64,000 nt of DNA from a virus (Duplodnaviria > Caudoviricetes): the IMG/VR virus record IMGVR_UViG_3300001869_000005, positions 33,973-97,972 of that record, one strand, 5' to 3'. The notes beneath the pieces are model-generated. The model was given only the letters and a program-made list of their open reading frames with translations, was not told where the DNA came from and did not search any database. Below, one piece after another: positions 1 through 64,000 of this stretch. The first letter of the stretch is position 1. The number at the start of each line of letters is the position of its first letter. The position numbers were made by a program, and so were the translations under genes.

Positions 1-387
1 TCATCTGTGTGGGATTTATGGCAACAATTACCTGAATCTGGAGAAACTCTTATCATTACCTCTTCTAGAAAGGACGCTCTATGCATTTGGGAGAATGCCA
101 GCATTCCTGCTTGTAGTCTTCAGGCAGAATCATATTTGCCTAAAGAACACGTCGTAGAAGAGCTTAAAAACAGGTTTACAAACGTATATATCCTATATGA
201 TAATGACTTTGACAAAAAAGAAAACTGGGGTGAACATCTTGGTGCTAAAATGTCAGAAAAATATGGTTTAACCCAATTACATTTACCTATAGAACTTAAA
301 GCAAAAGATGTAAGCGATCTATGTAAAATGTATGGAAGAAATACAGTAAATAAAACAATTAACTTATTAATAACAAATCATGAGTAA
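1..387 (+). CDS. DNA primase, C-terminal TOPRIM part (5' end outside window)
   Basis: LIITSSRKDALC and YILYDND (TOPRIM DxD) followed by KDVSD, typical of crAss-like primases. Confidence 0.8.
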   Translation, partial: SSVWDLWQQLPESGETLIITSSRKDALCIWENASIPACSLQAESYLPKEHVVEELKNRFTNVYILYDNDFDKKENWGEHLGAKMSEKYGLTQLHLPIELKAKDVSDLCKMYGRNTVNKTINLLITNHE

Positions 388-613
388 AGTAAGTACATTT
401 AAAACTCTGGGTACTAAATATCCAGAATTCAAAAATCTATCAACAAATCATTTTTCTCAACTTAATAGACTACAGGAGATATATCCAATTGTAAGAACAT
501 TACGAGAAGATTATCCTGCAGCTAAAACTGAATTTTATAATTATCCAACTATTCCCACAAAGGATTTGGGTAAGAAAATATTTGTATTTATTCAAAATAA
601 TTTAACCAATTAA
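380..613 (+). CDS. hypothetical protein (77 aa)
   Basis: ATG overlaps primase end, TAA stop, followed by terminator. Confidence 0.6.
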   Translation: MSKVSTFKTLGTKYPEFKNLSTNHFSQLNRLQEIYPIVRTLREDYPAAKTEFYNYPTIPTKDLGKKIFVFIQNNLTN

Positions 614-622
614 ATAATTTTT

Positions 623-648
623 GGGGAAGATAATCTCTTCCCCTTTTT
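623..648 (+). terminator. intrinsic terminator
   Basis: GGGGAAGA-taatc-TCTTCCCC stem followed by TTTTT. Confidence 0.75.
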
Positions 649-672
649 ATAAACCCTTATAGATTTTTAAAA

Positions 673-1167
673 ATGGATGAAGAACTCGACATTTACAACG
701 AATTAGCAAATCTAAGACCCTTTAAAGGGTCAGAGGATTGTTTAACTCCAGAAGAGTATTTAAAACTATATTTTGACTTAGGAAGACCTGAAACAAAGTT
801 TAGAAATGGCACAATACAATGTTCCAGAGATTGTAACAGAAGCTTTTTTGATTTATACTATCTTACAAAAGCCAAATTCAATGATGTTACATTAGAGGAC
901 GTTGCAAAAATTCTTATTAATTTATGTGAAGATTATGGTAATACGGGCATAAGTGCCTTATTTTGTCCCAATATTGAAAAAGTAGTATTTACTAATTTTT
1001 CGGAAAAAGGTTATGAATTAGAAGACTATAGTTTCTTTTATGACCAAGATTCTCTTATGACTAATGACCGGGATACTGAAAAATATGGTGTTGATAATAT
1101 ATCTTTTTTAGATATAATCTCATTATCTGGTAAAAAAAGAAGGGAAATTATTACTATAATATATTAA
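673..1167 (+). CDS. hypothetical protein, paralog of 1170-1664
   Basis: 164 aa; shares PxKGSE, QC..xNRSFxDLYxLTKAKF and CxNIxK with the next ORF. Confidence 0.75.
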   Translation: MDEELDIYNELANLRPFKGSEDCLTPEEYLKLYFDLGRPETKFRNGTIQCSRDCNRSFFDLYYLTKAKFNDVTLEDVAKILINLCEDYGNTGISALFCPNIEKVVFTNFSEKGYELEDYSFFYDQDSLMTNDRDTEKYGVDNISFLDIISLSGKKRREIITIIY

Positions 1168-1169
1168 TT

Positions 1170-1664
1170 ATGGAAGAAAAACAATTATATGTAATTCCTA
1201 AAGAAATTGAGGATGACTTATCTAGATTAGTTCCTTATAAAGGAAGTGAAGAAATTACTGATCCTATAGAATATATTCTTAATTATATAAACATAGGGGC
1301 ACCTTCAACATTTTACAATGATGGGGAATTACAATGTAGAAGTGGAAGAAACAGAAGTTTCTTGGACTTGTATTTTCTAACTAAGGCAAAATTTCCTGAA
1401 ATTACATTGTCAGAATTTGCTAAAATCTTTTTAGAATTGCACGAGGTTCCCTATGGAAACAGGTTTAAGATTATAGTATATGTATGTGGGAATATCCAAA
1501 AACCCGTATTATATATGGGATATAGCATTTATGGGGGGGCACTAAGTATTTCTACTGTGGAGCATATGGAGAAGTATTTATTCCGTAGTACATATACAGA
1601 TATTACAATAGCACAAATCTTTGATTTAGTTGGATTAGATTATTATCATTTTATAAAAGAATAA
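1170..1664 (+). CDS. hypothetical protein, paralog of 673-1167
   Basis: 164 aa; same motifs as the upstream ORF. Confidence 0.75.
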   Translation: MEEKQLYVIPKEIEDDLSRLVPYKGSEEITDPIEYILNYINIGAPSTFYNDGELQCRSGRNRSFLDLYFLTKAKFPEITLSEFAKIFLELHEVPYGNRFKIIVYVCGNIQKPVLYMGYSIYGGALSISTVEHMEKYLFRSTYTDITIAQIFDLVGLDYYHFIKE

Positions 1665-1666
1665 TT

Positions 1667-2032
1667 ATGTATATTGGAGTTTATGGAACCCTTAAAAAGG
1701 GTCAACACGCAAATTGGATGTTAGCGAACAGTCCTTTTATTGGAGAATTTAGGACAGACATACCTTTTCAAATGTATAATTTAGGGGCATATCCAGCATT
1801 AATCGCAGATGAAGAAAGTCATCCCATTACATTAGAAGTATATGCTGTTACCGATGAAGACATTTTAAATTGTCTTAATACGTATGAAGGATATCCAAGT
1901 CTTTATCAAAAAAGTGAAATCATGGTGGATAAGAAAGAATGGACAGAAGCTATAGAAGTAACAATCTATACTATGAAGAATAACCATAAAGATAGATTTA
2001 TGAGTGTTGTAGAATCTGGTAATTGGAAATAA
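1667..2032 (+). CDS. gamma-glutamylcyclotransferase (GGCT/AIG2-like)
   Basis: VYGTLKKG loop, YPAL, EVY, LNTYEGYP catalytic Glu motif. Confidence 0.9.
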   Translation: MYIGVYGTLKKGQHANWMLANSPFIGEFRTDIPFQMYNLGAYPALIADEESHPITLEVYAVTDEDILNCLNTYEGYPSLYQKSEIMVDKKEWTEAIEVTIYTMKNNHKDRFMSVVESGNWK

Positions 2033-2049
2033 TTTAAAATTAAAAAAAT

Positions 2050-2829
2050 ATGTTCGTACAAATTAGAAGTAAAAATGATACTGCTGCTGCCCTTAGAGGT
2101 AAAGTAGTTACTAGAAAAAGAACAGTACTGCGTTTGGGTAGTAATACCTCAACTGATCAAATCTTTCCAGAAGGAGTTCGTAGAGGTAAAGAAATCGTTG
2201 AAATCAATACAGTTGAAGCGTGTCATAATAGTGGTAACAAAATTACCATGAAACAAATGTTTGATGCTGCTGGAATAATTACTGCAGAATGGAAACCTTT
2301 GAATGAAGTCTTTGAAGAAAATAATGTCATAGATTGGGATCATTTCCCAGCCATCATTAAACACAAAAATTCCAGTAAAGGAAATGGTATTTTCTATATT
2401 GAAGACGGTGATCAATTAAGAACTTTTCAAAATGAACACAACAATCTTTCTAATTACATTATTGAGAAATTTTACAATTATGTAAAAGAATATCGACTCC
2501 ATGTCACAAAAGATGGTTGTTTCTATACATGTCGTAAAATGCTTAGAGATGATGCACAAGAAAGATGGCATCGTCACGACAGTAATTCTGTATGGATTCT
2601 TGAAGAGAATGAATTATTTGATAAACCATCAAATTGGGATGCAATTGTTGCTGAGTGTGTAAAAGCTATGCAATCAGTTGGTCTTGATATCTCCGCAATT
2701 GACATTAAGGTGAATAAACAACGTGAACCTAAATTTATTATTTTGGAGACAAATTCTGGGCCTGCCTTGGCAACTATTACTACAGAAAAATATATCAATA
2801 AATTACAAGAAATCGTAGATGAATTTTGA
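2050..2829 (+). CDS. ATP-grasp amide ligase (RimK-like, phage type)
   Basis: FPAIIK, SKGNGI, IEKF, EYRLHV, AIDI, ILETNSGP motifs. Confidence 0.85.
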   Translation: MFVQIRSKNDTAAALRGKVVTRKRTVLRLGSNTSTDQIFPEGVRRGKEIVEINTVEACHNSGNKITMKQMFDAAGIITAEWKPLNEVFEENNVIDWDHFPAIIKHKNSSKGNGIFYIEDGDQLRTFQNEHNNLSNYIIEKFYNYVKEYRLHVTKDGCFYTCRKMLRDDAQERWHRHDSNSVWILEENELFDKPSNWDAIVAECVKAMQSVGLDISAIDIKVNKQREPKFIILETNSGPALATITTEKYINKLQEIVDEF

Positions 2830-3619
2830 TCAGACTAGAAATTTTTATACTGTATACAAATATAAATTCTTAGATTCAACGGAATGGACTGTTCCTTTAC
2901 AAACTAATTGTTTTGGTACATTTTTTTCAGATACTAAAGTAAAAAATGCTATAGAAACAGAATCTTCAAAAAGTATAGAATTTAATATATTTGTTAACAC
3001 TGACCCTAAAAGTAATACCGCTCTTTGTAATTTATGTTTATTAAACAAAGAAGAAGTTATTAGTTTCCTTGACGAGATTAAACAATGGATAAACTTTTCT
3101 TATACATTAGAATACGAAGAAAAATGTTTTTACATTAATTTAATCACTAGTACTAATCTTCTAGGTAATAAATTACTATTAACTTTAGTAAGATTCTTAT
3201 GGGAAGGTCCTTTTAATATTTGTTTAAAAGAGGCAATAGAGTTAAAAAAAAGAAATTATTTCCCAAAGTTGACTCTTTTGTATACACATCTTTTAGTGCA
3301 AACATCTTTATATAGGGATTGCGCTCAGCCACACGGATTAATTTCTCATCCAACTAAGCCTATTCCAATTTATACAAAGTTAAAGTTAAAAAATAAACTT
3401 AAAATCCCAGCAAACGATCGTAACCCAGTGAATAATTTCTTTAATAATCCTGGAGGAGATTTTACTTTTTATGCAGGAGGATCTTTGTATAAAACAAATA
3501 CCCCCAACAATTTATTTTTAAAAGATGGGAAGTTGGCAATGGAAGATGCAGACATTAGTAGTCGTGTAGAAAATTATCATAATATTAATTATAAAACATT
3601 ATTTGGTGAACAAAAATAA
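2819..3619 (+). CDS. hypothetical protein within amidoligase cluster
   Basis: 266-aa ORF overlapping both neighbours; no recognised motif. Confidence 0.7.
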   Translation: MNFDQTRNFYTVYKYKFLDSTEWTVPLQTNCFGTFFSDTKVKNAIETESSKSIEFNIFVNTDPKSNTALCNLCLLNKEEVISFLDEIKQWINFSYTLEYEEKCFYINLITSTNLLGNKLLLTLVRFLWEGPFNICLKEAIELKKRNYFPKLTLLYTHLLVQTSLYRDCAQPHGLISHPTKPIPIYTKLKLKNKLKIPANDRNPVNNFFNNPGGDFTFYAGGSLYKTNTPNNLFLKDGKLAMEDADISSRVENYHNINYKTLFGEQK

Positions 3620-4253
3620 ATTAAAAGTATATGTTGTTGGACCTTCTACAGGATATGCAAGATTCATTCAGGATTATGTACTAGTTAATAATATGGCTTC
3701 TGCAGATATTATACTATTTACAGGAGGAGCAGATGTGAATCCAAAACTGTATGGGGAAGAAGCTCATCCTACAACATATTTTAATATGGAACGGGATTTA
3801 TTTGAAATACAAGAGTATAAGAAATCTCTAGAAGTGCCTAATGTTTTAAGAGTCGGAATCTGCCGCGGAAATCAGCTCTTGGGTATGTTAAATGGTTGTA
3901 AACTAGTACAAGATGTAACCCATCACGCAATTGGTAAAACCCATAAGGTTATTGTCTATGGAGAAGAGCCGACTATTTTTGATACTACTTCTTTACACCA
4001 TCAAATGGTGTATCCCTATAACATAAACAAAGATGAGTATGATATTTTAGCGGGTTCTTATCCTAAACTATCTGCTCATTATTATGGGGGAGGAATATCC
4101 TGGAAAGACTATTACAAAGAAGTAGAAGTAATCTATTTTCCAAAAACAAATTCTCTTGGAATACAAGGGCATCCGGAAATGATGGACAATTATAGTCCAT
4201 TCGTTAAATATCTTAATTCAATAATTTTATCTAAATTAAATAAAAATGGTTAA
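3603..4253 (+). CDS. class I glutamine amidotransferase-like / peptidase C26 (gamma-glutamyl hydrolase)
   Basis: FTGGADV, GICRG nucleophile elbow, SLHHQ, QGHPE triad; exact start uncertain. Confidence 0.88.
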   Translation: MVNKNKLKVYVVGPSTGYARFIQDYVLVNNMASADIILFTGGADVNPKLYGEEAHPTTYFNMERDLFEIQEYKKSLEVPNVLRVGICRGNQLLGMLNGCKLVQDVTHHAIGKTHKVIVYGEEPTIFDTTSLHHQMVYPYNINKDEYDILAGSYPKLSAHYYGGGISWKDYYKEVEVIYFPKTNSLGIQGHPEMMDNYSPFVKYLNSIILSKLNKNG

Positions 4254-5124
4254 TGTTAATTATATAGATCATGTTACAATTGGATCTGATCCAGAATTAT
4301 TTATTTTTAATAATAAAACAAAAACAGTTGTATCCTCTATTGGATTAATTCCTGGACATAAAAAAGATGCATTTGTTCCAGAAGGATTTCCAGAAGGTTT
4401 TGGTTTACAAACAGATAACATCCTTGGGGAATTTAATATTCCTCCAGTTGTTGTTAATTCTAATCGCCCTGTTGTAGCATTAGAATTTCTTCAGCACATA
4501 AACCGAATGAAGGATTATATCAGGGATTTTGTTAAAATCGTAAATCCAGATTATGACATAAAGTGTAGTGCTTCTGAAATGGTGCCAAATGATCAACTTT
4601 GTAGTGATGAAGCCACTCAGTTCGGATGCGATCCAGATTATAATGTATACACCTTGGGCCAAAATATGGCACCAGAAGGAACTAAAACAAATCTCCGGAG
4701 TACAGGCTGCCACATTCATTGTGGATATAAAAACCCAACGCTACAAACGTCTTTAAGTCTTATAAAAGTATTAGATTTATATCTGGGAGTTCCTTCAGTA
4801 TTAATTGATGCTGATACTAGAAGACGTTCCCTATATGGCAAAGCTGGTTGTTTTAGATTAACAGATTATGGATTAGAATATAGGGTTCTTTCTGGTTATT
4901 TCATAAAAACAGATGAACTTATTAATTGGATGTTTAATCAAACATTACAAGCAATTAATTATTTTAATACTTGTCTGGAACAGGCTTCTTCAGAAGGAAA
5001 TTTAGAAAACTTTAATATTGATTCATATTTACCTTCACAAGGATCAATATTAAATAGTATTAACAATGGTAACAAAATATCAGCAAAAAGATTAATTACA
5101 AAGTATGGTATTGAATTAGTATAA
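4246..5124 (+). CDS. phiEco32-like COOH-NH2 ligase type 2
   Basis: IGSDPELF, DN..EFN, GCDPD, RSTGCHIHCG, RRSLYGKAG.FR, YGLEYRVLS. Confidence 0.9.
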   Translation: MVNVNYIDHVTIGSDPELFIFNNKTKTVVSSIGLIPGHKKDAFVPEGFPEGFGLQTDNILGEFNIPPVVVNSNRPVVALEFLQHINRMKDYIRDFVKIVNPDYDIKCSASEMVPNDQLCSDEATQFGCDPDYNVYTLGQNMAPEGTKTNLRSTGCHIHCGYKNPTLQTSLSLIKVLDLYLGVPSVLIDADTRRRSLYGKAGCFRLTDYGLEYRVLSGYFIKTDELINWMFNQTLQAINYFNTCLEQASSEGNLENFNIDSYLPSQGSILNSINNGNKISAKRLITKYGIELV

Positions 5125-5186
5125 CTACTATTTTATTTACAGATAGTCTTTTTCTTTGAATTATTAATTAAAAAATAAAAAAGTAA

Positions 5187-6710
5187 ATGTTAAATATAAT
5201 TCTTATATCTTTATTAATACACTATATAATTCTATTAATAAAAAAACCTAATTTAAATGTTCTAAATTGTGGAATATTTGGATACGTAGGCATAGAAAGA
5301 CACCTAGATAAGAAAAGTTTTCTTACTCTAGGTTGTGTAAACGATTCTCGTGGGGGCGACTCTACAGGAATTTTTATTGATAGGCAATTTGAATATGGAG
5401 TAGGCCCTAAAAAATACTTTTCTGACTTTTTTCCAGACAGTGAGTTACTTAAAAATACAACCACTGCCAAAATTGCATTAGGGCATTGCAGAAAAGCTTC
5501 TGTAGGAGCCATTAATGCAGACACTGCTCAACCCGTGGTAATAAAAAACAGAGATACTGGGAAACCAGAATTTGTATTACTACATAATGGTACATTATTA
5601 AACCATAAAGAATTAGCTAAAAAATATTTATCTAATACACCAGATACATATACAGATAGTCAAATTATGGCTTATATTATTTACTATAATGGATTCGATG
5701 TTTTAGCAGAATATGAGGGAGCCGGGGTATTTGTAATTGCTGACTATAGAAAAACCCCAAATTCTCCAGACATTTATATGTTTAAGGGAGAATCTTTACA
5801 GTATTCTTACTCTAAGGATATAAGTGAAGAACGACCTATTTATATTTCTATAGAAGATAGAGGTATATGGTTTTCATCAATTCAAGATTTTTTAGAAACC
5901 ACTCGTTATGGGGATGGATTGATACGCACATTAAAAGGTAATCGCCTTTATCATATTAAAAATGGAGAAATAAAATCTCATACTGCATATGATAGAAGTA
6001 CAAGACATCAATCTGCAATAATTCAAACTTATAATACATATGCTCGTCGAGAATTTGAAGATTATGATGAATATTTACCTGCTGCAAAAGCTATAACTGG
6101 CCAAAATAATAGAGGAGCTACTTTTGTTTGCACAGATTATGTTACTCCAACTATTCGTCCAGCAACAAAATTAATTTTTGTAGATGGAAAATATGTAATG
6201 GACAACATAAATGCTCATGGTAAGTATAAATTAAGCGCTTACGGATATCAAACAACCTTTGAATCTGAAACTAATTTGGACTTTTGGTTTTTTGGAGGAG
6301 TATTATTGTATAATGAAAAGTGCTATAAAATTCTCACTGAAATTTTTAACTTGTTCGGGTTAGAAGATGTACAGGATTTTATAGATGGATTCCCAGAGGT
6401 TGTATACCCCTATAGTCCTTTAGTATGTTGGGATATTACGGATAAAAAATATGTAAAGTATGATTCTACAAAATCTGTTTTCTTTACTGGCACTATGGGA
6501 ATAATATTAGATGGAGATGATTGTGAATATACATTTGTTGATGGTAAGTTAATAACAAAAACAACTTATCCATATTCTGCAGATAAATTACAAATATCTC
6601 GATTTAAAAAAGCAGCAGAAAAATTTAAAGATATTAAAGTTGCAGCAGAAGTAAAAGATATCTGTGATTGGTTGGGTTATTTTACCGAAGTTAATAAAGA
6701 AGAAAATTAA
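5187..6710 (+). CDS. class II (Ntn) glutamine amidotransferase with hydrophobic N-terminal extension
   Basis: CGIFG, RGGDSTG, GHCRKAS, HNGT, TDS motifs; catalytic Cys is residue 28. Confidence 0.85.
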   Translation: MLNIILISLLIHYIILLIKKPNLNVLNCGIFGYVGIERHLDKKSFLTLGCVNDSRGGDSTGIFIDRQFEYGVGPKKYFSDFFPDSELLKNTTTAKIALGHCRKASVGAINADTAQPVVIKNRDTGKPEFVLLHNGTLLNHKELAKKYLSNTPDTYTDSQIMAYIIYYNGFDVLAEYEGAGVFVIADYRKTPNSPDIYMFKGESLQYSYSKDISEERPIYISIEDRGIWFSSIQDFLETTRYGDGLIRTLKGNRLYHIKNGEIKSHTAYDRSTRHQSAIIQTYNTYARREFEDYDEYLPAAKAITGQNNRGATFVCTDYVTPTIRPATKLIFVDGKYVMDNINAHGKYKLSAYGYQTTFESETNLDFWFFGGVLLYNEKCYKILTEIFNLFGLEDVQDFIDGFPEVVYPYSPLVCWDITDKKYVKYDSTKSVFFTGTMGIILDGDDCEYTFVDGKLITKTTYPYSADKLQISRFKKAAEKFKDIKVAAEVKDICDWLGYFTEVNKEEN

Positions 6711-6714
6711 ATAT

Positions 6715-8052
6715 ATGGTTGATAATAAAAAACAAACTGTTTTTGATTACGAAAATCAAGAAGAAATTTCTATGGATTCTGCATATGTAAGGCGCTTAAT
6801 TCAAGGAATTGTAGAAATACAGGGAAGAATTCCAAAAATGGGGTATTTCACTCCAAATAGAGCAAAAAACATTGTTGTAGAAGTTAAGGGAGGCACATAT
6901 GTAGCTCTTTCCAAAGATATATTTATTGATAAATTCTTAGTATATAACAATAATACTGGAAAATATGGATATCATATAGGAAAAGATGATTTAAATTACA
7001 TTAAAACTTTTTCTTTACACAAAGGCTCCGGTGATTTTCCTTACAGTTCTATAACAAGAGATTACAATGCTCAAAGAAATTTAGAGAAATTTGCTAGTAC
7101 AGCAAAAGCGTGTCATGTAAATCCTTCTAAATACAAATCCTTAGTCCCTTATACATTTGGATTAGAATATGAAACTTCTGCCGGGTATGTACCAGAAGAA
7201 CTGTGCTATTCAAAAGGATTAATACCTCTAAGAGATGGTTCAATCACAGGAGTTGAATATGCTTCTATAGTAATGAATTCACAAACTGGGTTTGAACTAT
7301 TAAGGGAACAATTGGATGTATTAAAAACTTATACAGAGTATGACAAGGAGTGTTCATTGCATATTCATTTTGGTGGATATCCTGTAGATGAAAAAGCAAT
7401 CACCGTTTTATATTTTATTTTTGAAAGGCTGCAATATGCATTACATCATAATGAAATTGTGCCGCATTACACATTCAGTACTTGCAAATATAAAAGCAGT
7501 GGTAAAGATTATTGTAAAATGCTTCCAGGACGAGATACTTTTAACTCAATTTATGAGTTTTTAAGTGGTGGGGGAACTCCATTTTTAGGAAGTTTTACAA
7601 TACCTCATCCGGGAGATCAACGACATGATACTAAATGGAATATCCATTCGCGGTATTATGCTATGAACCTTATCAATATGTGTTTTTATCAGACTCCTAA
7701 AACAGTAGAAATGCGGTTTTTAAGACCGTCTTATAATTACAACAAAATTGTAAATTGGATCTTTATATTTAGTAGTATATTGCAATTTGCTAATAAATAT
7801 GCTATAGAATCTACAAAAGGTTTAAAATATAATACAATTTACAACAAAATTTGTAATTTATTTGATGGGAGCATTAGTGATTTTGAAAGAATTTTTACAG
7901 AAGTATATCCTTCAGAAATTGTTTCAGAATTAATGAATTTCTTAACAACACTTTCTGCAATTAATCACAAACAGATACAATTAGGAGATTATATTGGCAA
8001 ATTAGACAAATTTGATGATAGTCTAATTACAACTAATGCATTAGAAGTTTGA
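6715..8052 (+). CDS. putative amidoligase (glutamine-synthetase-like fold, Amidoligase_2 type)
   Basis: TFGLEYET, RDGSI.GVEY, SLHIHFG, RYYAMN, TVEMR; ATG at 6715 preferred over 6664. Confidence 0.82.
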   Translation: MVDNKKQTVFDYENQEEISMDSAYVRRLIQGIVEIQGRIPKMGYFTPNRAKNIVVEVKGGTYVALSKDIFIDKFLVYNNNTGKYGYHIGKDDLNYIKTFSLHKGSGDFPYSSITRDYNAQRNLEKFASTAKACHVNPSKYKSLVPYTFGLEYETSAGYVPEELCYSKGLIPLRDGSITGVEYASIVMNSQTGFELLREQLDVLKTYTEYDKECSLHIHFGGYPVDEKAITVLYFIFERLQYALHHNEIVPHYTFSTCKYKSSGKDYCKMLPGRDTFNSIYEFLSGGGTPFLGSFTIPHPGDQRHDTKWNIHSRYYAMNLINMCFYQTPKTVEMRFLRPSYNYNKIVNWIFIFSSILQFANKYAIESTKGLKYNTIYNKICNLFDGSISDFERIFTEVYPSEIVSELMNFLTTLSAINHKQIQLGDYIGKLDKFDDSLITTNALEV

Positions 8053-8759
8053 TGAGTTTACCATTTTTTAAAGGTTGGAAACACCTTATAAATTCATCAA
8101 CAGTAAAAGACATTATTTCTATTCTGGATGTGGCTTACCAAGGCGGTAAAGTCACTCCAGAAAAGAAAGATGTTTTTAAATGTTTTATGAAATGCCCATA
8201 TGATAAACTTAAAGTAGTAATTATTGGTTTAGATCCATACCCTCAAAAAGGAATAGCTACAGGATTAGCATTTGCTAATAAACCAAATACCACAACATTA
8301 AGTCCTTCATTAAGTGTTATTAAAGAGGCTCTATTTAACCCACATGATCTAATTATATGGCCTGAGGGTAAAAATACAACTGATTTAAAAAATAATTTTG
8401 ATATAAGTTTAGAATATTGGGCAGAACAAGGAGTTTTATTACTAAATTCTGCTTTAACAACAATGTTAAACAATCCAGAGGCACATATAGATTTATGGAG
8501 ACCTTTTATATCAAAATTATTAATAAGTTTATCAGATAGAAATCCTGGAATTGTTTATATATTGTTTGGACGAGTTGCAAAAAATCTATCAGTCTATATT
8601 AATCACAATACTAATTGCGTCCTTATGGAAAATCATCCTGCCGCTTTTGCTCGATATGAACAAGAAATGGGAGATGATGTATTTATTGAGGCAAATAAGT
8701 ATTTAAAAAGTCAGTATAATGAAACAATTGATTGGTGTGGATACAGAAGACTTGGATGA
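8049..8759 (+). CDS. ung: uracil-DNA glycosylase, family 1
   Basis: KVVIIGLDPY (GQDPY variant), ATGLAF, WAEQGVLLLNSALT, HPA. Confidence 0.9.
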   Translation: MMSLPFFKGWKHLINSSTVKDIISILDVAYQGGKVTPEKKDVFKCFMKCPYDKLKVVIIGLDPYPQKGIATGLAFANKPNTTTLSPSLSVIKEALFNPHDLIIWPEGKNTTDLKNNFDISLEYWAEQGVLLLNSALTTMLNNPEAHIDLWRPFISKLLISLSDRNPGIVYILFGRVAKNLSVYINHNTNCVLMENHPAAFARYEQEMGDDVFIEANKYLKSQYNETIDWCGYRRLG

Positions 8760-53846: not shown

Positions 53847-53848
53847 TC

Positions 53849-55713: not shown

Positions 55714-55743
55714 TGTTGTTTTAAATTTGTTAAAAAATTATTG

Positions 55744-55775: not shown

Positions 55776-55797
55776 AGACTAAATAATTTATTAATAC

Positions 55798-56103
55798 TTA
55801 TTCTATAATTAATGTTTTTTCAATTTCCGTAATTGTATCAAGGATAAGTTGCGAGGCTTCGCTCAAATATTCCTTGTTTGTATTCAGGTTCACCGATATG
55901 TTGTTGCCATTACAGTTGAATGACCCAAAAGTTGGTTGCGGTGTTGCTGCTGGTGTTGTTGCCGGCAAAACTGTTACAGAGCCATTAAAGCTGACCACTT
56001 TCAGATTATCATCCAGTGATACCTGGCCTTCGATTTTCACATTTGCGGCATTTGCTTTAGCCGTGTACTGCGTTTTTTTGTTTGCTAATGTTAGATTTTC
56101 CAT
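55798..56103 (-). CDS. hypothetical protein (possible fibre chaperone)
   Basis: 101-aa intact ORF directly after fibre gene. Confidence 0.65.
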   Translation of the reverse strand: MENLTLANKKTQYTAKANAANVKIEGQVSLDDNLKVVSFNGSVTVLPATTPAATPQPTFGSFNCNGNNISVNLNTNKEYLSEASQLILDTITEIEKTLIIE

Positions 56104-56123
56104 CTTTTTAAATTTAAATTGTT

Positions 56124-58622
56124 TTATTTTAAGTATTTGACATGAATCTTAACCGTGTCACCGGAATAAAATCCGTCTAAATTATTTGTGACAGTTATCG
56201 TAGATCCTGTATACACCCAGCTACAGTTGTTTGCAGATCCGGGGTATTGCTCCCCGTATAAATTCCCTCCAGAAGCGAGAACGCTTATTGCGATAGATAC
56301 AATATTTGCTTTTGTGGCCTTTGACCAAGATGCGGAAACAGACATGGTTTCATCAGTCATAACATCTATATAAACGTAGTCATCAGCCATCGACTCATTT
56401 CCATCAGTAGAAAGCGCCAAAGCGCTTACTACCGTATCAGCAACATCAGCATAAGCTGAAATACCTCCTGTAGCGTAAAGATTACCAGCTACACGAACAT
56501 TGCCGTAATCGTCTATTGTTATAGCAGCAGATAAATTTGAAGCGTTTCTTAAAGTAAGGTCTGTTATTATAGCACCGTTCGGGAATGAGGGTATTCCCGT
56601 TGAAACTGGCACTTGGATAGCCCCGGAAGCATAAACGAAGTTCTCAAAACTTCCATTTCCATCATCACCAAACATCCCACCTATCATTCTACCCTGCATG
56701 GTGTCGTACATTCCTATCTCATAGCCATCAAATAAAGCCCAGTTGGCAAAAACAATTCCCCCATCGTTAGGTGAAATAGAATTTATAGCATGGCTGTAAT
56801 TTGAAGTTATTGAGCCACCAAAATACCCAGTGCCAAAACCATCAACATAACATTTTTGAACTCCGTTAGCTCGTAAATCCAAGAACTTAAAAGCACTGGT
56901 TGCAGGTCTGTCTGTATAGCCATAAAACAAAGAATTATTGAATGCTGCATTAGTGTTATGAAGAGTAAATGCGGTTGAAGATTGTAAACTTCCGGTAACC
57001 CTGAAGCGACCTGCAACATCAAGCTCAACACCTGGATTAATTATTCCAATTCCGACGTTACCGTTGATTGTTGTATTCCCCGTCCCACTTACGATGAGAT
57101 TGCCAGCAAGTATAGCATTAGAAGCATTATCAATGGATAATGCAATATCCGAAGCAGACCTATAAAATTGTAAAACATTAAGACCATTATTACTGATTTC
57201 CCACGAACCGGTCGTGCCTGTCAGTCTTACCGAAGCATTGCCAGTAGCATCTACACCTGATATTTGCAATACTTTACCAAATCCAGGCATACTTCCAGGC
57301 ACTGTCGTCCCGATGCCTACGTTGCCGTTTGATTGTTTTATTGTAACTACATTAGGAGTACCTACCCATCCGATTCTCCAATCATCAGTAGTTGGATCAA
57401 GTGCCATCCTGCCATTATCCGCCGTGTTTCCGAGTATATTTAATGATGAACTGTTTTTAATTGTTAAATTTCCACCTACACTAAAATTTGTCCCATCCGT
57501 CCATATCCCACTATTTGCTAATCCGCCCAATGTATGGTAGGGCAGATAGCCTGCGGTGAGGTTGGATAGTTTGGCGGTAGTGGCGGTGACTGTTCCTGAA
57601 AATATAGCTGATGAATTTGAGAACCTAAAGGGAAGTTGCGACTTGGTTACATCATAAAACCCGAAGTAGTCATCATCTCCCATTCCAATACCTTGCCCAA
57701 AAACCCAACTTCTACCAATACTATTTGATATAAAGGCATTTTGAGTTCCTGAATTATAATTAGAGGTTATCCCTCCTGTTGCGGAAACGGTGGAAGAGAA
57801 GGACGAAGAACCATCAGCATTAATTTTAAATACATCATAATGTCCATTGGTGCTAAAACCTACCCACCCATCATTTGCTTGAATAATAGCAAAGGCCTTA
57901 CTCCAATCTGTCGCTAAAGTTCTATTTTGCAGCTGTAGATTAAAATAATTTTGTGCTGGACTTTCGCCCCTTATGGCTGTACCATTGTTATTTAATGCAT
58001 TAACTTGAGTGGCATACAAGTTCTTTGCATTCCAGTCTACGGTACTAAGATTCGAGTTTCCTGAATCCCATATTTTTCTCCACGAATCGAATGTTGTCCC
58101 GCCGTAAAAACTTCTCCAGTATTTATCATGCGCGACGCCGGCGAGTGAGGTGAACTCCTGTTCGAACCAATCGGAAGAATACACGTTCTGTTTCAAAATG
58201 CCAATACTATTAACTGGTATATTAGCCCAGTAGTAGTCCATCTTAATAAATGAATTCGCGTCTGTCGGACGTGTATTGGCATCGTAACCTGCCCCCCAAG
58301 TATGTGTCACCAAAGGAAAATTTTCCGGGTTCAGGTTTCCCGCGTGCCATACCCCATAAGAGTTAACGGTAAGACCTCCTGTGAAATTCTTTTCCCCTGT
58401 TATGGTCTGTACAGTATCAGAATATACAAGCGTTGAAGGTTTGTTTAGTATATGAGACCAATCATTCAGAGTAATAATAGTATTTGCTGCATTTTTAATA
58501 AATAGACTTTCATATCCTGTAGCATAATTTAAAGCCAATTCCCCATACACCATTGTTACTGGGGCAGAGGGAACTTGACTTACTACGGTTGTAGAATTTC
58601 TTACTTTTATGGTATTACTCAT
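56124..58622 (-). CDS. tail fibre / receptor-binding protein (832 aa, no TAG)
   Basis: YGELALNY N-terminal domain, WRKIWDSGN, GNVGIGT repeats, GNLYATGGISAY. Confidence 0.85.
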   Translation of the reverse strand: MSNTIKVRNSTTVVSQVPSAPVTMVYGELALNYATGYESLFIKNAANTIITLNDWSHILNKPSTLVYSDTVQTITGEKNFTGGLTVNSYGVWHAGNLNPENFPLVTHTWGAGYDANTRPTDANSFIKMDYYWANIPVNSIGILKQNVYSSDWFEQEFTSLAGVAHDKYWRSFYGGTTFDSWRKIWDSGNSNLSTVDWNAKNLYATQVNALNNNGTAIRGESPAQNYFNLQLQNRTLATDWSKAFAIIQANDGWVGFSTNGHYDVFKINADGSSSFSSTVSATGGITSNYNSGTQNAFISNSIGRSWVFGQGIGMGDDDYFGFYDVTKSQLPFRFSNSSAIFSGTVTATTAKLSNLTAGYLPYHTLGGLANSGIWTDGTNFSVGGNLTIKNSSSLNILGNTADNGRMALDPTTDDWRIGWVGTPNVVTIKQSNGNVGIGTTVPGSMPGFGKVLQISGVDATGNASVRLTGTTGSWEISNNGLNVLQFYRSASDIALSIDNASNAILAGNLIVSGTGNTTINGNVGIGIINPGVELDVAGRFRVTGSLQSSTAFTLHNTNAAFNNSLFYGYTDRPATSAFKFLDLRANGVQKCYVDGFGTGYFGGSITSNYSHAINSISPNDGGIVFANWALFDGYEIGMYDTMQGRMIGGMFGDDGNGSFENFVYASGAIQVPVSTGIPSFPNGAIITDLTLRNASNLSAAITIDDYGNVRVAGNLYATGGISAYADVADTVVSALALSTDGNESMADDYVYIDVMTDETMSVSASWSKATKANIVSIAISVLASGGNLYGEQYPGSANNCSWVYTGSTITVTNNLDGFYSGDTVKIHVKYLK

Positions 58623-58635
58623 ATATGAATTTTAA

Positions 58636-60333
58636 TTAATAAGTCCCACAGTCTATAGTAGATGTTGTGGATAGTACAGTACCATCTACAGGTAATGTTA
58701 TTGATGTTGCTGCAGTTACAGTTAAAGTTGTATTATACGCTCCCGATAAAGTAAGATTACCACCAATAGTAATAGTACGAGTACTATTGTTTACACCTGT
58801 ACCCCCGTAAGTACCTATTAAGATACCACTAGTCAACTTATCAGTGCTAAGGGAAGGTATATCTGCAGCTATAAGTGCTCTAAAACTAGGTACACCAGCA
58901 GAACCATTAGGAGATGCTAAAACATAATTAGCAGTTTTAGAAGCATAAGGATTGACCGTATCTCCATAAGCTGTTGGCAAAGAATAAGCTGCTGCAAAAG
59001 CCCCTGATTGAAGTGTACCACCAACACCTATATTTAAAGTAGATCCACTAGTACCGTTTAATGTAAGTGTTTGAAGTACTGTAAGTGTTTTAGACGTTGT
59101 GCCCCCAGCAACAGAAAATCCAGTAGTTAAAGCAGTTAACTATACTCCGCCAGAATTTCCAGCTTCAAGAGTTAATACTCTATTATATATTCTATTAATA
59201 GTATAAGCATTAAAGGTTTCATTGCTTTCTACTTCGCCAACTCTGAAAGCATATAAATCAGTAGTTAAATCTGAATAAACATGGATGGCTTCAACCAATC
59301 CACCCCCACCACTTCCAGAACCATCACTGGTTCCATAAGCAGTAACTTCTCCCAGAGAATAGAAATCCATATTGGCTTGAATTCTAGGGCCAGTCTACTC
59401 AGTAAACATCTTCCTATATTCATTATAGAATCCTTGAACCTATGAAGCAGCAATTGCTTTGTTTGATCCTTGAGCAATGGTTCCTAATGAACCAGCAGTC
59501 CAAGAACTACCAAACCATGTTCCAGCAGTTAAACCAGAAGTTAAATCTACATATAAAGTACTGTAATCCTGTGTTGTGTCGGTACCAGGAACTCTAGTGG
59601 TTTTAAGAGATATGTTATCATATAATTTAGTACTTGGTTCTAATTGACTACCTACTATAGTTCCCTATGTAGAAGCTGTACTATTTTGGGTACAAGCGAA
59701 TTTAACAGTTGTAAGAGTACATCCTACTACTAACCAAGTACCATTAAATCCTGTTGACACCGCACCTGTAACAGTAATATATGACCCCACATCAAATGGT
59801 TCTTCTGTAGCGGCTGCAAAAGTAGCAGTAACAGTTGTGCCATTCCCTACCATTGCTATTGATGTTTTAGTAGTACTAACAGGCACTCCAAGAGTATAAT
59901 TAATAGATGCTTTACTACCAAGCATTGACATGATGGTATAACTATCATCTTCTGGAATAGTAGATAAGAATGCTTTTACTTCATTCCATGAATCTATAAT
60001 GTTATCACTATCTGCTACCAGTATATCTAGTGCATCCGTAATATATTTAAGTGTTCTAATCTATGTAGGGTCTGTTGTACCCAGTATATTAGTTTGCAAC
60101 CAACCTAGTGATTTAAACTACGCTAAAGTGGTGATTAGGGCAGTAGATGTTGCCTCCGTAACTTCTGTATTAGTTACTAAAGGAAGAAATAATGTAGGAT
60201 CAATTGCATTTGAATTCAATCCTATTTCTCCGTAATATAAACCACCTGAATCAGGAGCTTTTACAATAGAACCGTTCTAAACAGTTCTTGCATTACTGCG
60301 AATATGTTTGACAACCTAACTAGTTCTTGCCAT
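58636..60333 (-). CDS. fibre protein (code 15, 565 aa)
   Basis: fragments 58636, 59140, 59665 in one frame; N-terminal YYGEIGLN, ANYVLASPNG..PSFRAL, C-terminal IDCGTY. Confidence 0.8.
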
Positions 60334-60357
60334 GTAAAATTATTTTATTTTGTGTTT

Positions 60358-61575
60358 TTAAAAAGTTCCTGGATTTATATTGGTAGCCAAATCATATACA
60401 ATTTTTACTGATTCTGCAGATGCAATTCTATGAATTCCACCCAAAAAATCATTAGCTAATGCAAGTGGTTGAAAGTTCTCATCTGTTATTCCATCTGCAA
60501 ATTCATATCGTATAAACTCATCGTCTAATTTTAGTACTACACTAAGTCCAATATATCTATATTCAGCGGTAACTCGTGAAAGATATTGTATAGCCGTTTC
60601 TATTGGTAGTCCATTTAAGTCTGCTATTGCCCTTCTTACATGATCATATAATTTCTTTTTCCATGTAGTACCTTCTTTTACAATTACTTGCGCTTGAGTA
60701 TCTACGACATCTACCGTATCTTCAATATTAGTAAGAGCCCCTAATGTTAAAGGACGAGTAAATAAATCCCATCCTAATTTAGCAGAAAGAACATAATCTT
60801 CTGTAGTTCCTACTATATAATCTGTCCATAAATCTAATCTGTCATAAGCAGCAGGATTTTCACTTGAACCAATTCCATATGCAGTTATTTCTGAATTAGA
60901 AGTTATATTTCCACTAATCCACATATTCGCATTTTGTGCAATAATGGATTGATTAGCAATAAAATCTCCCGTATTGTTATTTGCAGCCGTCCCAAAAGTT
61001 CTATAGGCTAATACGTTAGTACCAATTACTAAACCTAGTGTGGTAGGTGTGATTGCAGTTGCCGCTCCTAAAAGATCATATAAGCCACTATGATTACCCC
61101 AACCATAGGCCGCTGCCGCCTTAATGTTTATTTCATTAATAGTAAAAGCATTAAATGTATCTGTCAAAATAGAATTAGAAAACACTCCTCCTAAATTCAG
61201 GAAATTATAGACATTTTCTATCAATCCTCCTCCGCCACCCCCACCGTCTGTACCAATCCCATATGCACTAATTTCACCATTGGAGGTTATGTTTCCTGTG
61301 ATCCATATAGATGCATTCTATGCAGAAATAGATTGATTTTGTATATAATCATGAGTTGCTTGTGAATGGTCATATGCAACTTTACCTCTATCTCCCCTAT
61401 ATGCAGTGGTGGATGTTTCCCCAAGAGTTAATGAGGCACTAACTCCCGCCAATGCTTCATTAATACCATCTACTAAAACTTTAGAACCATTATGTAGATA
61501 AGGTGAATAGGTATCTTGTTTTTCTTGTAAATAGAGTTTGTATCTAACATCCCCCATTTCTTGTCTTAAACTCAT
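60358..61575 (-). CDS. fibre protein with internal repeat (code 15, 405 aa)
   Basis: LGETSTTAYRGDRGK.AYDHSQ; two copies of NQSIxA(Q)NAxxWIxGNITSN; ends NINPGTF. Confidence 0.8.
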
Positions 61576-61594
61576 ATCTACAAAGTTTTAATTG

Positions 61595-64000
61595 TTATTT
61601 ACTTACAGGATTAGACTTCTTTTGCATTTTTTTAATAGTCAAGTCCTTCTCCCTTAACTGTACATCGTCGGCATGTACCTATTTATCGTGAGATAACTTC
61701 ATATCAAACTATCTGATTTTCTCTAATAGAACATCTTTATCCTTTTGAGAGTAATCTTCCGGTTCTTGAATTCCATCATCTCCTCCTTCTGTATTAGCAT
61801 TTGCGCCTATATGAGCAATTAATAGTTTAGTCTCATTGTCTCTAATACTAGCGGATTCTTTTTGTTGCAATTCTTGCATTTTAAACTCATTCTGCATTTG
61901 AATTAGTCTTTCATTGCTCTATTGTTCTGCCTAACTTGCCTAAGCCTATCTTTCTTGAATTGACTGTTCGTCTTTTTCAATAAGTTTTTGTTTTTCTGCA
62001 AGAGAACAAGAACTATATAATTTCATAATTGTGGAAAAAGAAAGAGTCTAATTCTATAAAGCCGCTTGCGCAAGAGTATCTAATTTAGCAGATAATTGCT
62101 GCATACCATTACTATTGTCTACTACAAGACCATAGTCAGCTTCTGCAAAATCATCTCCATCTATATCCATTATCTACATGGACCCATCAGATAGAATATA
62201 CTAAAACTTCTTACTTCTGCCCTTCATTGCAATTTTTGCAGTTTCCAAAAAGGCTTCTAATGCCCTTCTTTTAACATCTTCGTGTATAACAAATAACCAT
62301 TCGGTTATATGGGAAGACTATAGATTAGATCTCTCAACTCCACCAACCGTTTCTCTGTTACTTACTTGACCTTCCCTCTGTGGAGATATACCGGCAACTT
62401 CACCCATTTCCATTTTAATAAACGCTAAGAGGTTTATTTGTTGTTGAATGTAATTACCCGTTTCTGCATCAATAACTCCATTAGAAGCATTATTCATAGC
62501 TCCTGCAAGTTTTCCTGTAGCAGCACCTATATTACCTTCTTTGAAACTATCGGTTACAGAGATGTGATTTACTTTTGCATAGTACATCCACTTCTCAACA
62601 TCCCATCCTTTTGGTACTTTAGCTAAATCTAAACTTACAATTTTACCCCAATTGGCGGCCATTGCTTTATTTAGTCTATCGTGTATAGCATCATATAAGT
62701 AATTATATGGCTTCATCATATCTACAAGAGAAAAAGGTCTGCTATCATTTAAATTATAAATAGAACCCACAATACCAAAATGGCATCTTGATGGGTTAGA
62801 TAATCTATTGTATTGAATAACCTTTGGTCGCATATTAACATAGATGTCATTACCTATCTTAGTACCTTCCCAAGCTTCATTAATATAATAAATAGATTCT
62901 TCTTCTCCCATACTCTTATTTAATTCATAAGTTTCTGGGTAAAAAGTAAATACCTCTTCACCACTTTGTGGATCATATGATTTTACTTTCTTTATTTTTC
63001 TTCTGGACTTCCAATACATTCTAATAACTCTAAGATTACCAGCCAAATCATATGGTAATAATGAGTTAGAAATAGAGTCAGAAAATAAATTCATTGGATC
63101 AAAATAGAACCCATTACTACTAAGTTCCTCTCCAACCATATTATTATTTACATAACCAAATCTTTCATCTAAGTTATCCATAGAATCTACTGCAGCTTGC
63201 CCAACATGGTCTGGAAGTTTTTCAATATAATCCATGTCTTTTTTAGTAAGCACGTCATAAAAAACGTCTATTACTTTTCCAGGATTCCAATAATCTTCCA
63301 GTAGTACAATATCAGCATCTTCAATTTTATTACTATAACCAGATTTAAATACTCTTAATTTTAAAGGATTAACTCTCTCAATTGTAGGTTCTCCACCAAC
63401 AATGTCACATTGATAAATTTCTTCACCAACAGCCATTCCATCCATAAACCCCTAATTAAATAATAAGGGTATATTATATTCTTTTATATAATGATTTAAC
63501 AACGCATTTGCTCTAACTTCTCTCATATCCTACCAACTATACATAAAATAGTCATTCATTTTTTGTAATGACTATTCATATTCTTCTTGGCTCTGTGAGT
63601 TATCAGATACTAACTATTGTAAATTTTGTACTAACTAATTCTTTTTATTATCTTCTATTTCAGATATAGCGTTTGGATTAGTCACAACAACTTTAAAATC
63701 AAATAATCTTTTTGATTCTTCTCCTCTAAGAACATTTAGTTTGCTGTTCATTATAGGGTAATGCTATATCTTGTCTGGAACATAACCAGCTCTTACATTT
63801 TCAGGATTTAGAACTAACTCTAAATCTGACATATGTATTTTACCATTAAGTAAATCATAATTAATTTTCTTATGGATCACAGTCTTTCTTACAAGACTGT
63901 AATTAAAAAATGTTTTAGAATCTGCCCAATCAAGACATTTCTTTCTCCATTCTTTATTCTTTCTACTAAACGGTAACTATTGTGGTGGAAAATTTATTAA
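61595..64000 (-). CDS. portal protein (code 15; start a few codons beyond window)
   Basis: LINFPPQ*LPFSRKNKEWRK..YSLVRKTVIHKKINYDLLNG; INEAWEGTKIG; AGISPQREG..RETVGGVER. Confidence 0.9.

Follow-up and report, generated by a model that had tools for sequence, protein, structure and literature searches.

The phage analysed here very probably uses genetic code 15 for only part of its genes, combining a TAG-neutral plus arm with a minus arm in which TAG stands for glutamine and with a suppressor tRNA of its own, an arrangement in which TAG would act as a late translational lock. The window, by which we mean the whole stretch of 64,000 nucleotides that was analysed, forms the final 64 kb of the 97,972-bp genome (31% GC) of a crAss-like gut phage. 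Judged from its sequence, the phage is a Steigviridae (beta-group) crAss-like member of the Crassvirales, of which the window covers about two thirds, and it has the hallmark genes, a crAss-like order, modules collinear with those of crAss001 and the DFDVD motif. The major capsid protein (MCP) is 84% identical to that of crAss001 and 88% to that of cr128_1, the portal protein is 70% identical to that of Bacteroides phage crAss001 and 66-73% to those of Kehishuvirus, DAC15 and IAS virus, and a portal tree (quick IQ-TREE only) places the phage inside a 97%-supported set with crAss001. No GenBank phage exceeds ~74% nucleotide identity to the genome, and the closest IMG/VR relatives reach 88% portal identity; the genome is at most that of an undescribed species or genus.

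A plus arm that can be read in both codes

The plus-strand features of the window are as follows (coordinates are those of the window unless marked as genome positions):

1..17479, plus strand: TAG-neutral replication and nucleotide-metabolism arm, 26 ORFs, 0 in-frame TAG, all stopping with TAA or TGA
8049-8759, plus strand: homologue of crAss001 Gp74 UDG
8719-9216, plus strand: homologue of crAss001 Gp72 resolvase
9478-10524, plus strand: homologue of crAss001 Gp70 exonuclease
11373-13433, plus strand: homologue of crAss001 Gp64 DNA polymerase I (PolA)
14260-15159, plus strand: homologue of crAss001 Gp54 ThyX

The lack of in-frame TAGs and of TAG stops in this arm had been described in the first-pass annotation and extends to every ORF listed, at a coding density of ~96% under table 11. 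There was no TAG among 323 plus-arm glutamine codons (log10 P ~ -68 at the minus-arm rate of 0.38), and TAG stops were found in 0/26 ORFs in the window and in at most 1/67 in the whole plus arm, compared with 19/108 genes of crAss001 and 42/285 in standard-code relatives (15-18%). With TAG absent both as sense and as stop codon, the arm is read identically in either code, and the full purge of TAG stops argues for selection for correct reading in both code states. Recoding is restricted to the module of structural and lysis genes; the exceptions are four TAG-free minus-arm genes and a possible TAG stop at genome 27870. The latter would be the sole TAG stop of the genome (genome 27870-27872) and ends a 67-aa plus-arm ORF. 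It might, although we consider this unlikely, become fused in frame with the next gene (165 aa) under the suppressor, giving a stage-specific isoform. A single recoded gene at genome 27669-28376 was rejected, since only the stretch beyond the TAG is matched by homologues, which leaves two ORFs; the in-frame TAGs in the window ORFs starting at 2723 and 3525 were also rejected, as each lies in an upstream extension running into the gene before it.

TAG as a sense codon in the minus arm

The features of the minus strand are:

17521..64000, minus strand: TAG-recoded virion, packaging and lysis arm, 27 genes, 23 with in-frame TAG, 266 TAG
17521..21552, minus strand: homologue of crAss001 Gp49, virion RNAP-associated giant protein, 1343 aa, 47 TAG (66% of its glutamine codons)
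21558..28502, minus strand: virion RNA polymerase, homologue of crAss001 Gp50, 2314 aa, 51 TAG, DFDVD motif at residue 1416
28509..33656, minus strand: homologue of crAss001 Gp47, 1715 aa, 39 TAG, tandem TAGTAG at 31080-31085
42952-43494, minus strand: HU/IHF-like gene, 180 aa, tandem in-frame TAGTAG at 43405-43410
48743..50257, minus strand: MCP, homologue of crAss001 Gp32, 504 aa, 3 TAG, all aligned to Q
51532..53498, minus strand: lysis cassette of four genes
51532-51966, minus strand: endolysin, 1 TAG
within 51532..53498, minus strand: 150-aa lysis-cassette protein, 1 TAG
52475-53155, minus strand: spanin-like protein, 10 TAG vs 5 CAA
53166-53498, minus strand: 110-aa lysis-cassette protein, 2 TAG
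55240..58622, minus strand: TAG-free, GC-richer island in the recoded arm, genes of 157, 101 and 832 aa
61595..64000, minus strand: portal protein, 17 TAG in 761 aa from a GTG start

Calling the genes of each arm under table 15 instead of table 11, as the first-pass annotation had suggested, raised the coding density of the minus arm in the window from 47.6% to 98.0%, while treating TGA or TAA as a sense codon was rejected because neither gene call increased it. The frames are broken by TAG alone and never by TGA or TAA, all 27 genes stop with TAA or TGA and none with TAG, and the largest ORF under table 11 is only 832 aa. With TAG as a sense codon the genes become full length, giving contiguous ORFs of 1343, 2314, 1715, 669, 610 and 1553 aa next to the MCP and portal genes. 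The rejoining of minus-arm genes across TAG, their expected sizes (504 aa for the MCP, 2314 aa for the RNAP, ~800 aa for the portal) and the two tandem TAGs had all been pointed out from the letters alone, and were confirmed here. For the portal, the frame is open to the contig end (801 aa), and the crAss001-like N-terminus crosses the junction into genome positions 1-6. Since table 11 shatters the minus arm, fragmenting half of the phage and leaving most virion genes missed or mis-sized, genes in this record are best predicted with TAG read as glutamine or with a dual-code caller.

Counted over the minus strand of the whole genome, glutamine would be encoded by 294 TAG, 400 CAA and 73 CAG codons, making TAG the second commonest, with a TAG share per glutamine codon of 0.38 in the minus arm. 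This share is uneven: conserved genes such as that for the MCP (only 14% of glutamine codons) have few TAGs and fast-evolving genes have many. TAGs also occur close to the N-terminus, at codon 4 of TerL, codon 6 of a 565-aa protein and codon 14 of the 110-aa lysis-cassette protein. Four of the 27 minus-arm genes in the window are TAG-free, and the minus-strand genes on either side of the tRNA described below (genome 6545-11714) are mostly so; the clean early/late switch proposed in the first-pass annotation stands by arm, with a boundary that does not exactly follow the strand switch, and 'early' is a loose term for a plus arm made up mostly of replication (middle-class) genes.

The TAG-free island sits in a tail-fibre-like cassette which is without homologue even in the closest relatives, and its 832-aa gene has a GC content of 40.6% vs ~31% for the genome. 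The 832-aa protein had no match in Pfam or PHROG, a search of 5.8 billion proteins gave just two weak sequence relatives, and the ESM Atlas leads were tail-fibre-like and all sub-threshold. With regard to codon context, the base following TAG in the minus arm is A/G-rich, with C at 3.7% vs 13% after CAA/CAG (P = 1e-6). In six recoded relatives this bias replicated weakly (P = 0.048) with overall no depletion of C, so that selection for a suppression-friendly context is not claimed; in relatives, the base after TAG resembles that after CAG.

Suppressor tRNA and decoding machinery

The first-pass annotation had placed the decoding machinery outside the window, and indeed no tRNA gene was found within the 64 kb; the genome contains one tRNA with anticodon CUA:

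genome 7782-7857, minus strand, outside the window and 26 kb before its start: tRNA with anticodon CUA (ARAGORN and Rfam, 42.3 bits)

This tRNA-CUA has a canonical cloverleaf with U33/A37 and an encoded CCA end. In a comparison of five lineages there were compensatory changes in 12 of the 22 pairs, with an invariant CUCUA segment in the anticodon loop and conservation of a weak U1-G/A72 pair. The tRNA-CUA was present in 6/7 recoded portal loci (counting those that extend 7 kb or more upstream) vs 0/43 standard-code loci; a phage-encoded CUA suppressor is frequent in the code-15 group, albeit not universal. Its body was about equally similar to Lys, Arg and Gln tRNAs in a set of 174 phage tRNAs, and the suppressors of relatives were marginally closest to phage tRNA-Gln (0.66-0.68 vs 0.64). 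It carries U10; G10 is an identity element for the E. coli GlnRS. When IMG/VR was scanned for the exact pattern of the anticodon arm, there was no match.

Six-frame searches of the whole 97,972-bp genome gave no match at E<=1 for release factor (PF00472 RF-1) or Glu/GlnRS (PF00749). The machinery that the first-pass annotation had suggested looking for in the rest of the genome is represented by the tRNA, with no GlnRS or release-factor gene found, and of a 'code-change module' (suppressor tRNA, release factor and aminoacyl-tRNA synthetase) only the tRNA was detected. The Bacteroides-type promoter motif TTTG...TAnnTTTG has 6 matches vs 0.9 expected on the minus strand of genome 1-12.3 kb, one of them 370 nt upstream of the tRNA-CUA; there is a near-identical copy upstream of the tRNA in one relative (L011), and matching motifs in three others (L019, L031 and L025). 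Two ORFs lie upstream of the tRNA-CUA: directly upstream is a TAG-free ORF of 108 aa (genome 7876-8202), whose synteny with the tRNA extends to the recoded relatives closest to this phage (L009, L010 and L011), and a 300-aa ORF with 8 TAGs (genome 8846-9748) has the same orientation as the tRNA.

Glutamine as the residue at TAG

The assignment of TAG to glutamine in the minus arm is supported by its alignment with homologues. At 227 TAG columns aligned with the standard-code phage crAss001, Q was the commonest residue (63), with E, N and D next, and the maximum-likelihood residue was Q, by 84-91 nats over Glu as next best. Both alignments with homologues, these 227 columns and those of the portal, are in agreement with the first-pass annotation, which had placed TAG at glutamine positions of homologous motifs: NLMVQLL, SPKRQIDF and GMQRD are found in crAss001, while the endolysin motif FD-TAG-LI has no counterpart there. 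In the virion RNA polymerase, 18/47 aligned TAG columns are Q in crAss001. The portal alignment is more extensive, with Gln commonest in 14/17 TAG columns and present in 333/519 cells from 32 standard-code relatives; recoded relatives have TAG or Q at the same columns.

That TAG might be decoded as another residue (Glu, Lys, Tyr, Leu, Trp or pyrrolysine, for instance) is very improbable. One could point to the label 'Pyl' given by ARAGORN, which is its default for a CUA anticodon, to the tRNA body that is not clearly Gln-like, and to the share of Q at crAss001-aligned TAG columns of only 26%. However, at the same divergence CAA/CAG columns are likewise only 33% Q, and the TAG spectrum (Q, then E, N, D, R and K) mirrors theirs. 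Next to the likelihood difference, about 30 standard-code relatives all have Q at several of the portal TAG columns, and the glutamine content balances only if TAG is included (2.68% CAR plus 1.93% TAG gives 4.61%, vs 4.33% Q in crAss001). No pyrrolysine machinery was noticed in the 98-kb genome, for which the families queried were RF-1 and tRNA-synt_1c only, and in related phages mass spectrometry detected Q (PMC9523058).

TAG as a proposed translational lock and alternative explanations

In the model we favour, the host ribosome would first translate the TAG-neutral genes after infection. The suppressor tRNA, behind its promoter-like motif, would presumably be transcribed by the host RNA polymerase and charged with glutamine by the host GlnRS, and as it accumulates the TAG-containing mRNAs for virion, terminase and lysis proteins would become translatable in full; the timing of tRNA expression is suggested by the promoter-like motif and by the relatives. 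TAG would hence be a translational lock on late products, weighing most on the lysis and injected proteins and least on the capsid protein, which is abundant. Transcription of early genes would be independent of the recoded RNAP genes of the same cycle, since the enzyme would be packaged in the virion as in phi14:2, where the virion RNAP transcribes early genes and the host RNAP the middle and late genes (10.1101/2020.03.07.982082). A strict 'late only' timing is too simple, as the homologues of gp49 and gp50 are the most recoded genes here and yet belong in crAss001 to the middle class, together with the replication and nucleotide-metabolism genes (PMC8375218). The TAG-rich 300-aa ORF located upstream of the tRNA and the four TAG-free minus-arm genes also speak against the model.

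The assembly of the record from a metagenome is all that speaks for the TAGs being sequencing or assembly errors, or for the minus arm consisting of decaying pseudogenes. This explanation, to which we attach next to no probability, is already refuted: TAG is the only interruption of the frames, relatives that were assembled independently out of other samples share TAG positions with this genome, which also has the matching tRNA, and protein lengths agree with crAss001. Hardly more credible is programmed read-through at low efficiency, with the tRNA competing with RF1 and most ribosomes still stopping at TAG. It would fit with a single suppressor gene and with finding no RF2 gene, RF1 antagonist or GlnRS in the genome, but ORFs with 39-51 TAGs and tandem TAGTAG would then give almost no full-length protein (at 0.75 per codon, 51 codons leave ~4e-7), these TAG-rich ORFs encode essential virion proteins of a length conserved with crAss001, and TAG never serves as a stop in minus-arm genes. 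For an ORF with 51 TAGs, a full-length yield of 10-50% needs ~96-99% read-through per codon, and no RF2, GlnRS or other accessory factor that could account for such efficiency was found. Conceivably, though in our view this is unlikely, the suppressor tRNA alone does not suffice and a further phage gene, its function so far unrecognised, serves to remove or out-compete host RF1; candidates may be the unannotated 108-aa and 300-aa ORFs near the tRNA. If so, these ORFs and the tRNA would make up a minimal 'code-switch cassette' driven by a host promoter.

A more serious alternative, if still the less probable one, is that the split code is real without being a timing device, either through neutral accumulation of TAG (CAG to TAG under AT pressure) or because the suppressor was selected for damage to the host by read-through of host TAG stops, as proposed by Yutin 2021 (PMC7886860). 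The low GC content, the rarity of CAG next to the common TAG in minus-strand genes, the similarity of the bases following TAG and CAG in relatives, and the concentration of TAG in fast-evolving rather than relatively conserved genes are all compatible with this, and so are the at least 2-3 changes of code state over short distances on the portal tree. The tRNA also seems to lie within the strand block of the late genes, and may add little timing beyond that of transcription. Against it stand the TAGs in lysis genes, matching a bias that is significant across many genomes (Borges 2021, 10.1101/2021.08.26.457843), the N-terminal TAGs, and the complete loss of TAG stops in the plus arm, which points to selection for dual reading; none of these, however, separates cause from consequence. 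We continue to prefer the translational lock.

Comparison with known systems

In E. coli supE-type suppression, a tRNA-Gln with a CUA anticodon inserts glutamine at UAG as a partial suppressor in competition with RF1, and UAG is still a stop codon. The phage tRNA shares the CUA anticodon, the predicted insertion of glutamine at UAG and the weak first acceptor pair from U1, whereas its similarity to tRNA-Gln is weak and TAG is here a frequent sense codon and never a stop. The combination of standard-code-compatible early genes with a suppressor tRNA and with recoding of late and lysis genes is also found in Lak, Agate, Jade, Garnet and related clades (Borges 2021/22; Ivanova et al. 2014), although these are unrelated phage lineages, some with TGA=Trp; some of them, such as Jade and Lak phages, carry the 'code-change module', and accessory RF2 or aminoacyl-tRNA synthetase genes occur in some other recoded clades, while none were found here.

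The cultured crAss001 (Kehishuvirus primarius) uses the standard code, and shares collinear late and replication modules, the giant RNAP proteins Gp47, Gp49 and Gp50, and a tRNA block at the head of the late arm. It differs in having 25 tRNAs with no suppressor, no in-frame TAG and 18% of its genes ending in TAG; its gp49 and gp50 are middle genes on the replication strand, whereas their homologues here are heavily recoded and co-oriented with the late arm, and the tail-fibre cassettes are unrelated.

The closest parallel is with the recoded beta, delta and zeta crAss-like phages, in which code 15 is known, as the first-pass annotation had noted for some crAss-like phages. Yutin 2021 described TAG=Gln restricted to late genes together with suppressor tRNAs in these groups (PMC7886860), Borges 2021 a standard-code replication arm vs a recoded structural and lysis arm with the lysis genes most recoded (10.1101/2021.08.26.457843), and Peters 2022 peptides with glutamine at TAG in two crAss-like phages, including a 94-kb infant-gut phage (PMC9523058). 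The split-code architecture is therefore already published and proteomically validated in this phage order, and the genome opens no new question. Our phage belongs to the same order, and by portal and MCP to the same family; it likewise limits TAG=Gln to its module for structure, packaging and lysis, with a standard-code-compatible replication module, its own tRNA-CUA, lysis genes among the most TAG-rich and a code state that varies between close relatives, and like Yutin's delta-group genome (PMC7886860) it combines a TerL intein with recoding. There is no difference in kind, and the phage adds another clean example of a codon with a meaning that changes during infection.

TAG is a sense codon in one arm of the genome

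The 97,972-bp record (CheckV completeness 100%) is organised in three gene blocks, given here in coordinates of the whole record ("genome") and of the window:
genome 91–11714, minus strand, gene block
genome 12240–51451 (window 1–17479), plus strand, gene block
genome 51493–97852 (window 17521–63880), minus strand, gene block

The GC skew changes sign between window 16000 and 20000, near the convergent junction. Since the portal frame stays open across the contig ends (window 63880–64000 plus genome 1–93), the nominally linear record is a complete circular permutation, cut within the first codons of the portal gene; the junction is spanned by a portal N-terminus homologous to that of crAss001 (…LNFP.Q.LPFS…), with an in-frame GTG at genome 4–6. 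The major capsid protein (MCP; window 48743–50257, minus strand) shares 84% identity with Gp32 of Bacteroides phage crAss001 and 88% with its counterpart in uncultured phage cr128_1, while portal identity is 66–73% with Kehishuvirus, DAC15, IAS virus and other Steigviridae. No GenBank phage exceeded ~74% nucleotide identity to the genome, and matches covered small parts only.

With the standard code (table 11) the longest open reading frame (ORF) in the minus arm of the window is 832 aa and coding density is 47.6%, rising to 98.0% when TAG is read as sense, while making TGA or TAA sense gave no gain; the plus arm is already ~96% coding under table 11. Reading TAG as Gln turns the minus arm into a gap-free series of ORFs (1343, 2314, 1715, 669, 610 and 1553 aa), together with the MCP of 504 aa and a portal of at least 761 aa. 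This recovers the MCP and the 2314-aa RNA polymerase (RNAP) at the sizes which the first-pass annotation had obtained by rejoining frames across TAG, and agrees with its portal of ~800 aa. There are 266 in-frame TAGs in 23 of the 27 minus-arm genes of the window, all of which stop at TAA or TGA, and the tandem TAGTAG pairs reported at window 43405–43410 and 31080–31085 are both present.

The plus arm of the window was as described earlier, with neither in-frame TAG nor TAG stops in any of its 26 ORFs. If TAG made up 0.38 of Gln codons, as it does in the minus arm, the log10 P of seeing none in the 323 Gln codons of the plus arm would be about −68. The lack of TAG stops (at most 1/67 plus-arm genes genome-wide) is also non-random, because 42/285 genes in standard-code relatives and 19/108 in crAss001 end in TAG. 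Calling genes with TAG as Gln placed in-frame TAGs in two plus-arm ORFs, which were rejected as upstream extensions overlapping the preceding gene. The division of the genome into arms with and without sense TAG is thus confirmed.

The sole candidate TAG stop of the genome ends a 67-aa ORF within genome 27669–28376 (plus strand, L007:15469–16176, L007 being a piece of this genome outside the window). The ATG of a 165-aa ORF lies two codons past this TAG, in frame, and homologues match the 165-aa part only; with the suppressor active, both would be read as one 235-aa fusion.

TAG is read as glutamine

All minus-strand proteins were aligned to those of the complete genome of crAss001, a standard-code phage. 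Glutamine was the most frequent residue (63) in the 227 TAG columns with a crAss001 residue opposite, followed by E, N, D, R and K, and the phage's own CAA/CAG columns had the same residue spectrum, with 33% Q. The maximum-likelihood residue at TAG was Q, by 84–91 log units over Glu, with a substitution table derived from these crAss001 alignments. In the portal, Q was most frequent in 14 of 17 TAG columns among 32 standard-code IMG/VR relatives, six columns having no more than one aligned relative with a residue other than Q, and recoded relatives have either TAG or Q at the matching sites. Adding TAG (1.93%) to CAA/CAG (2.68%) gives 4.61% of residues in the aligned late proteins, against 4.33% Q in crAss001. 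Three of the four motifs that the first-pass annotation gave for TAG as Gln align exactly to Q in crAss001, while the fourth has no homologue there. Together this supports TAG as a glutamine codon.

The base following sense TAG in minus-strand genes is A or G in 78% and C in 3.7%, versus 13% C after CAA/CAG (P = 1e-6), and 55% of true stops have T as the next base. Six recoded relatives show this bias weakly (P = 0.048) and do not generally share the C depletion.

A suppressor tRNA is encoded outside the window

The first-pass annotation had placed the decoding machinery outside the window, and no tRNA was found within it; ARAGORN and Rfam searches of the remaining 34 kb identified a tRNA with anticodon CUA adjoining a tRNA-Met. 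A search of the whole genome for release-factor and Glu/GlnRS domains found neither. The features of this region are:
genome 8229–8260, minus strand, Bacteroides-type promoter motif (motif match)
genome 7876–8202, minus strand, 108-aa TAG-free ORF of no known family
genome 7782–7857, minus strand, tRNA-CUA (ARAGORN and Rfam)
genome 7483–7555, minus strand, tRNA-Met(CAU) (ARAGORN and Rfam)
genome 6545–7465, minus strand, TAG-free DNA-polymerase 3'-5' exonuclease-like gene, following tRNA-Met

The first four form, in this order, a compact unit (genome 7483–8260, minus strand, on the outside-window piece L006). The ORF-tRNA synteny is preserved in the closest recoded relatives (loci L009, L010 and L011), of which only L011 has the promoter motif. 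Outside the window, ARAGORN also called a tmRNA at genome 19003–19377 (plus strand); the region is non-coding and structured, and the call is probably spurious.

In the tRNA-CUA the CCA end is encoded and U33/A37 are present; its body resembles phage tRNA-Gln weakly and not decisively. Among 53 portal-bearing relatives (10 recoded, 43 standard-code), tRNA-CUA was present in 6 of the 7 recoded loci with enough upstream flank and in 0/43 standard-code loci, although as many as 25 tRNAs occur in some of the latter. The closest recoded relative is IMGVR_UViG_3300025575_000001 (98,996 bp). The cloverleaf is conserved across five distinct suppressor sequences, 12 of its 22 pairs showing compensatory changes; the CUCUA segment of the loop is invariant, and the first pair, U1-G/A72, stays weak. 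The promoter motif (TTTG, 17–23 nt, TAnnTTTG) has six copies on the minus strand of genome 1–12.3 kb, where 0.9 are expected. One of them is 370 nt upstream of tRNA-CUA. The tRNA is likewise preceded by a near-identical copy in L011, and by matching motifs in the relatives' loci L019, L031 and L025.

Proposed order of translation and its limits

The genome combines a replication arm that is neutral to TAG, an arm of virion, packaging and lysis genes in which TAG means Gln, and a phage tRNA to match. We propose that the TAG-free genes would be translated first by the host ribosome, and that the host would supply both the RNA polymerase that transcribes the suppressor tRNA and the GlnRS that charges it, full translation of TAG-bearing mRNAs being possible only once the charged tRNA is present. 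New synthesis of the recoded giant RNAP proteins may not be required early, since the homologous RNAP of phi14:2 is packaged in the virion and transcribes the early genes, with host RNAP transcribing middle and late genes (10.1101/2020.03.07.982082). Read-through must be efficient, as a gene with 51 TAGs and a full-length yield of 10–50% requires roughly 96–99% per codon.

While the split in code stands, the label "early" given to the plus arm is loose: its homologues of crAss001 UDG, resolvase, exonuclease, PolA and ThyX are middle genes in that phage (PMC8375218). The homologues of crAss001 gp49/gp50 are the most TAG-rich genes in this genome; in crAss001 (53433–64723) they lie on the replication strand, opposite to the structural genes, and are transcribed as middle class, whereas here the gp50-gp49 block (window 17521–28502) is co-oriented with gp47, the structural genes and the late arm. 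Nor does the code boundary coincide exactly with the strand switch: the minus-strand genes around the tRNA (genome 6545–11714), including the exonuclease-like gene and two homing nucleases, are TAG-free save one 300-aa ORF with 8 TAGs, and four minus-arm genes in the window lack TAG.

Three adjacent genes (157, 101 and 832 aa; window 55240–58622, minus strand) form a TAG-free island inside the recoded arm. Their 28 Gln codons include no TAG (P ~1e-6 at the arm's rate), and the 101- and 832-aa genes have 39–41% GC versus ~31% for the genome. The whole cassette at 53849–61575 lacks homologues, even in relatives whose portal is 88% identical, and the 832-aa protein has two weak relatives only among 5.8 billion proteins, with leads that are tail-fibre-like only. 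The island looks like a receptor-binding module recently acquired from a standard-code source.

The large terminase (genome 91–3516, minus strand, L006:91–3516) is 1141 aa long, compared to 762 aa in crAss001, and carries, at about residues 391–728, an intein with a LAGLIDADG homing-endonuclease domain; TAG occurs 16 times across extein and intein, beginning with codon 4.

Comparison with other recoded crAss-like phages

The share of TAG among Gln codons ranges from 0.08–0.14 in the MCP and some tail genes to 0.43–0.66 in the three giant proteins and 0.67 in the spanin-like gene and the adjacent 110-aa lysis-cassette protein, which fits the lysis-gene bias of Borges et al. (10.1101/2021.08.26.457843). 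A quick portal tree requires at least 2–3 changes of code state among close relatives, as also reported by Yutin (PMC7886860), Borges (10.1101/2021.08.26.457843) and Peters (PMC9523058). The phenomenon itself is already known: Borges et al. mapped a crAss-like genome whose replication arm keeps the standard code and whose structural and lysis arm is recoded, with a suppressor tRNA also present, and proposed the timing model, while Peters et al. (2022) detected Gln peptides at TAG in two crAss-like phages, with none in early proteins. As such crAss-like phages are described in all three studies, this genome is another member of a published kind, and the practical value of the result lies in its correct annotation.
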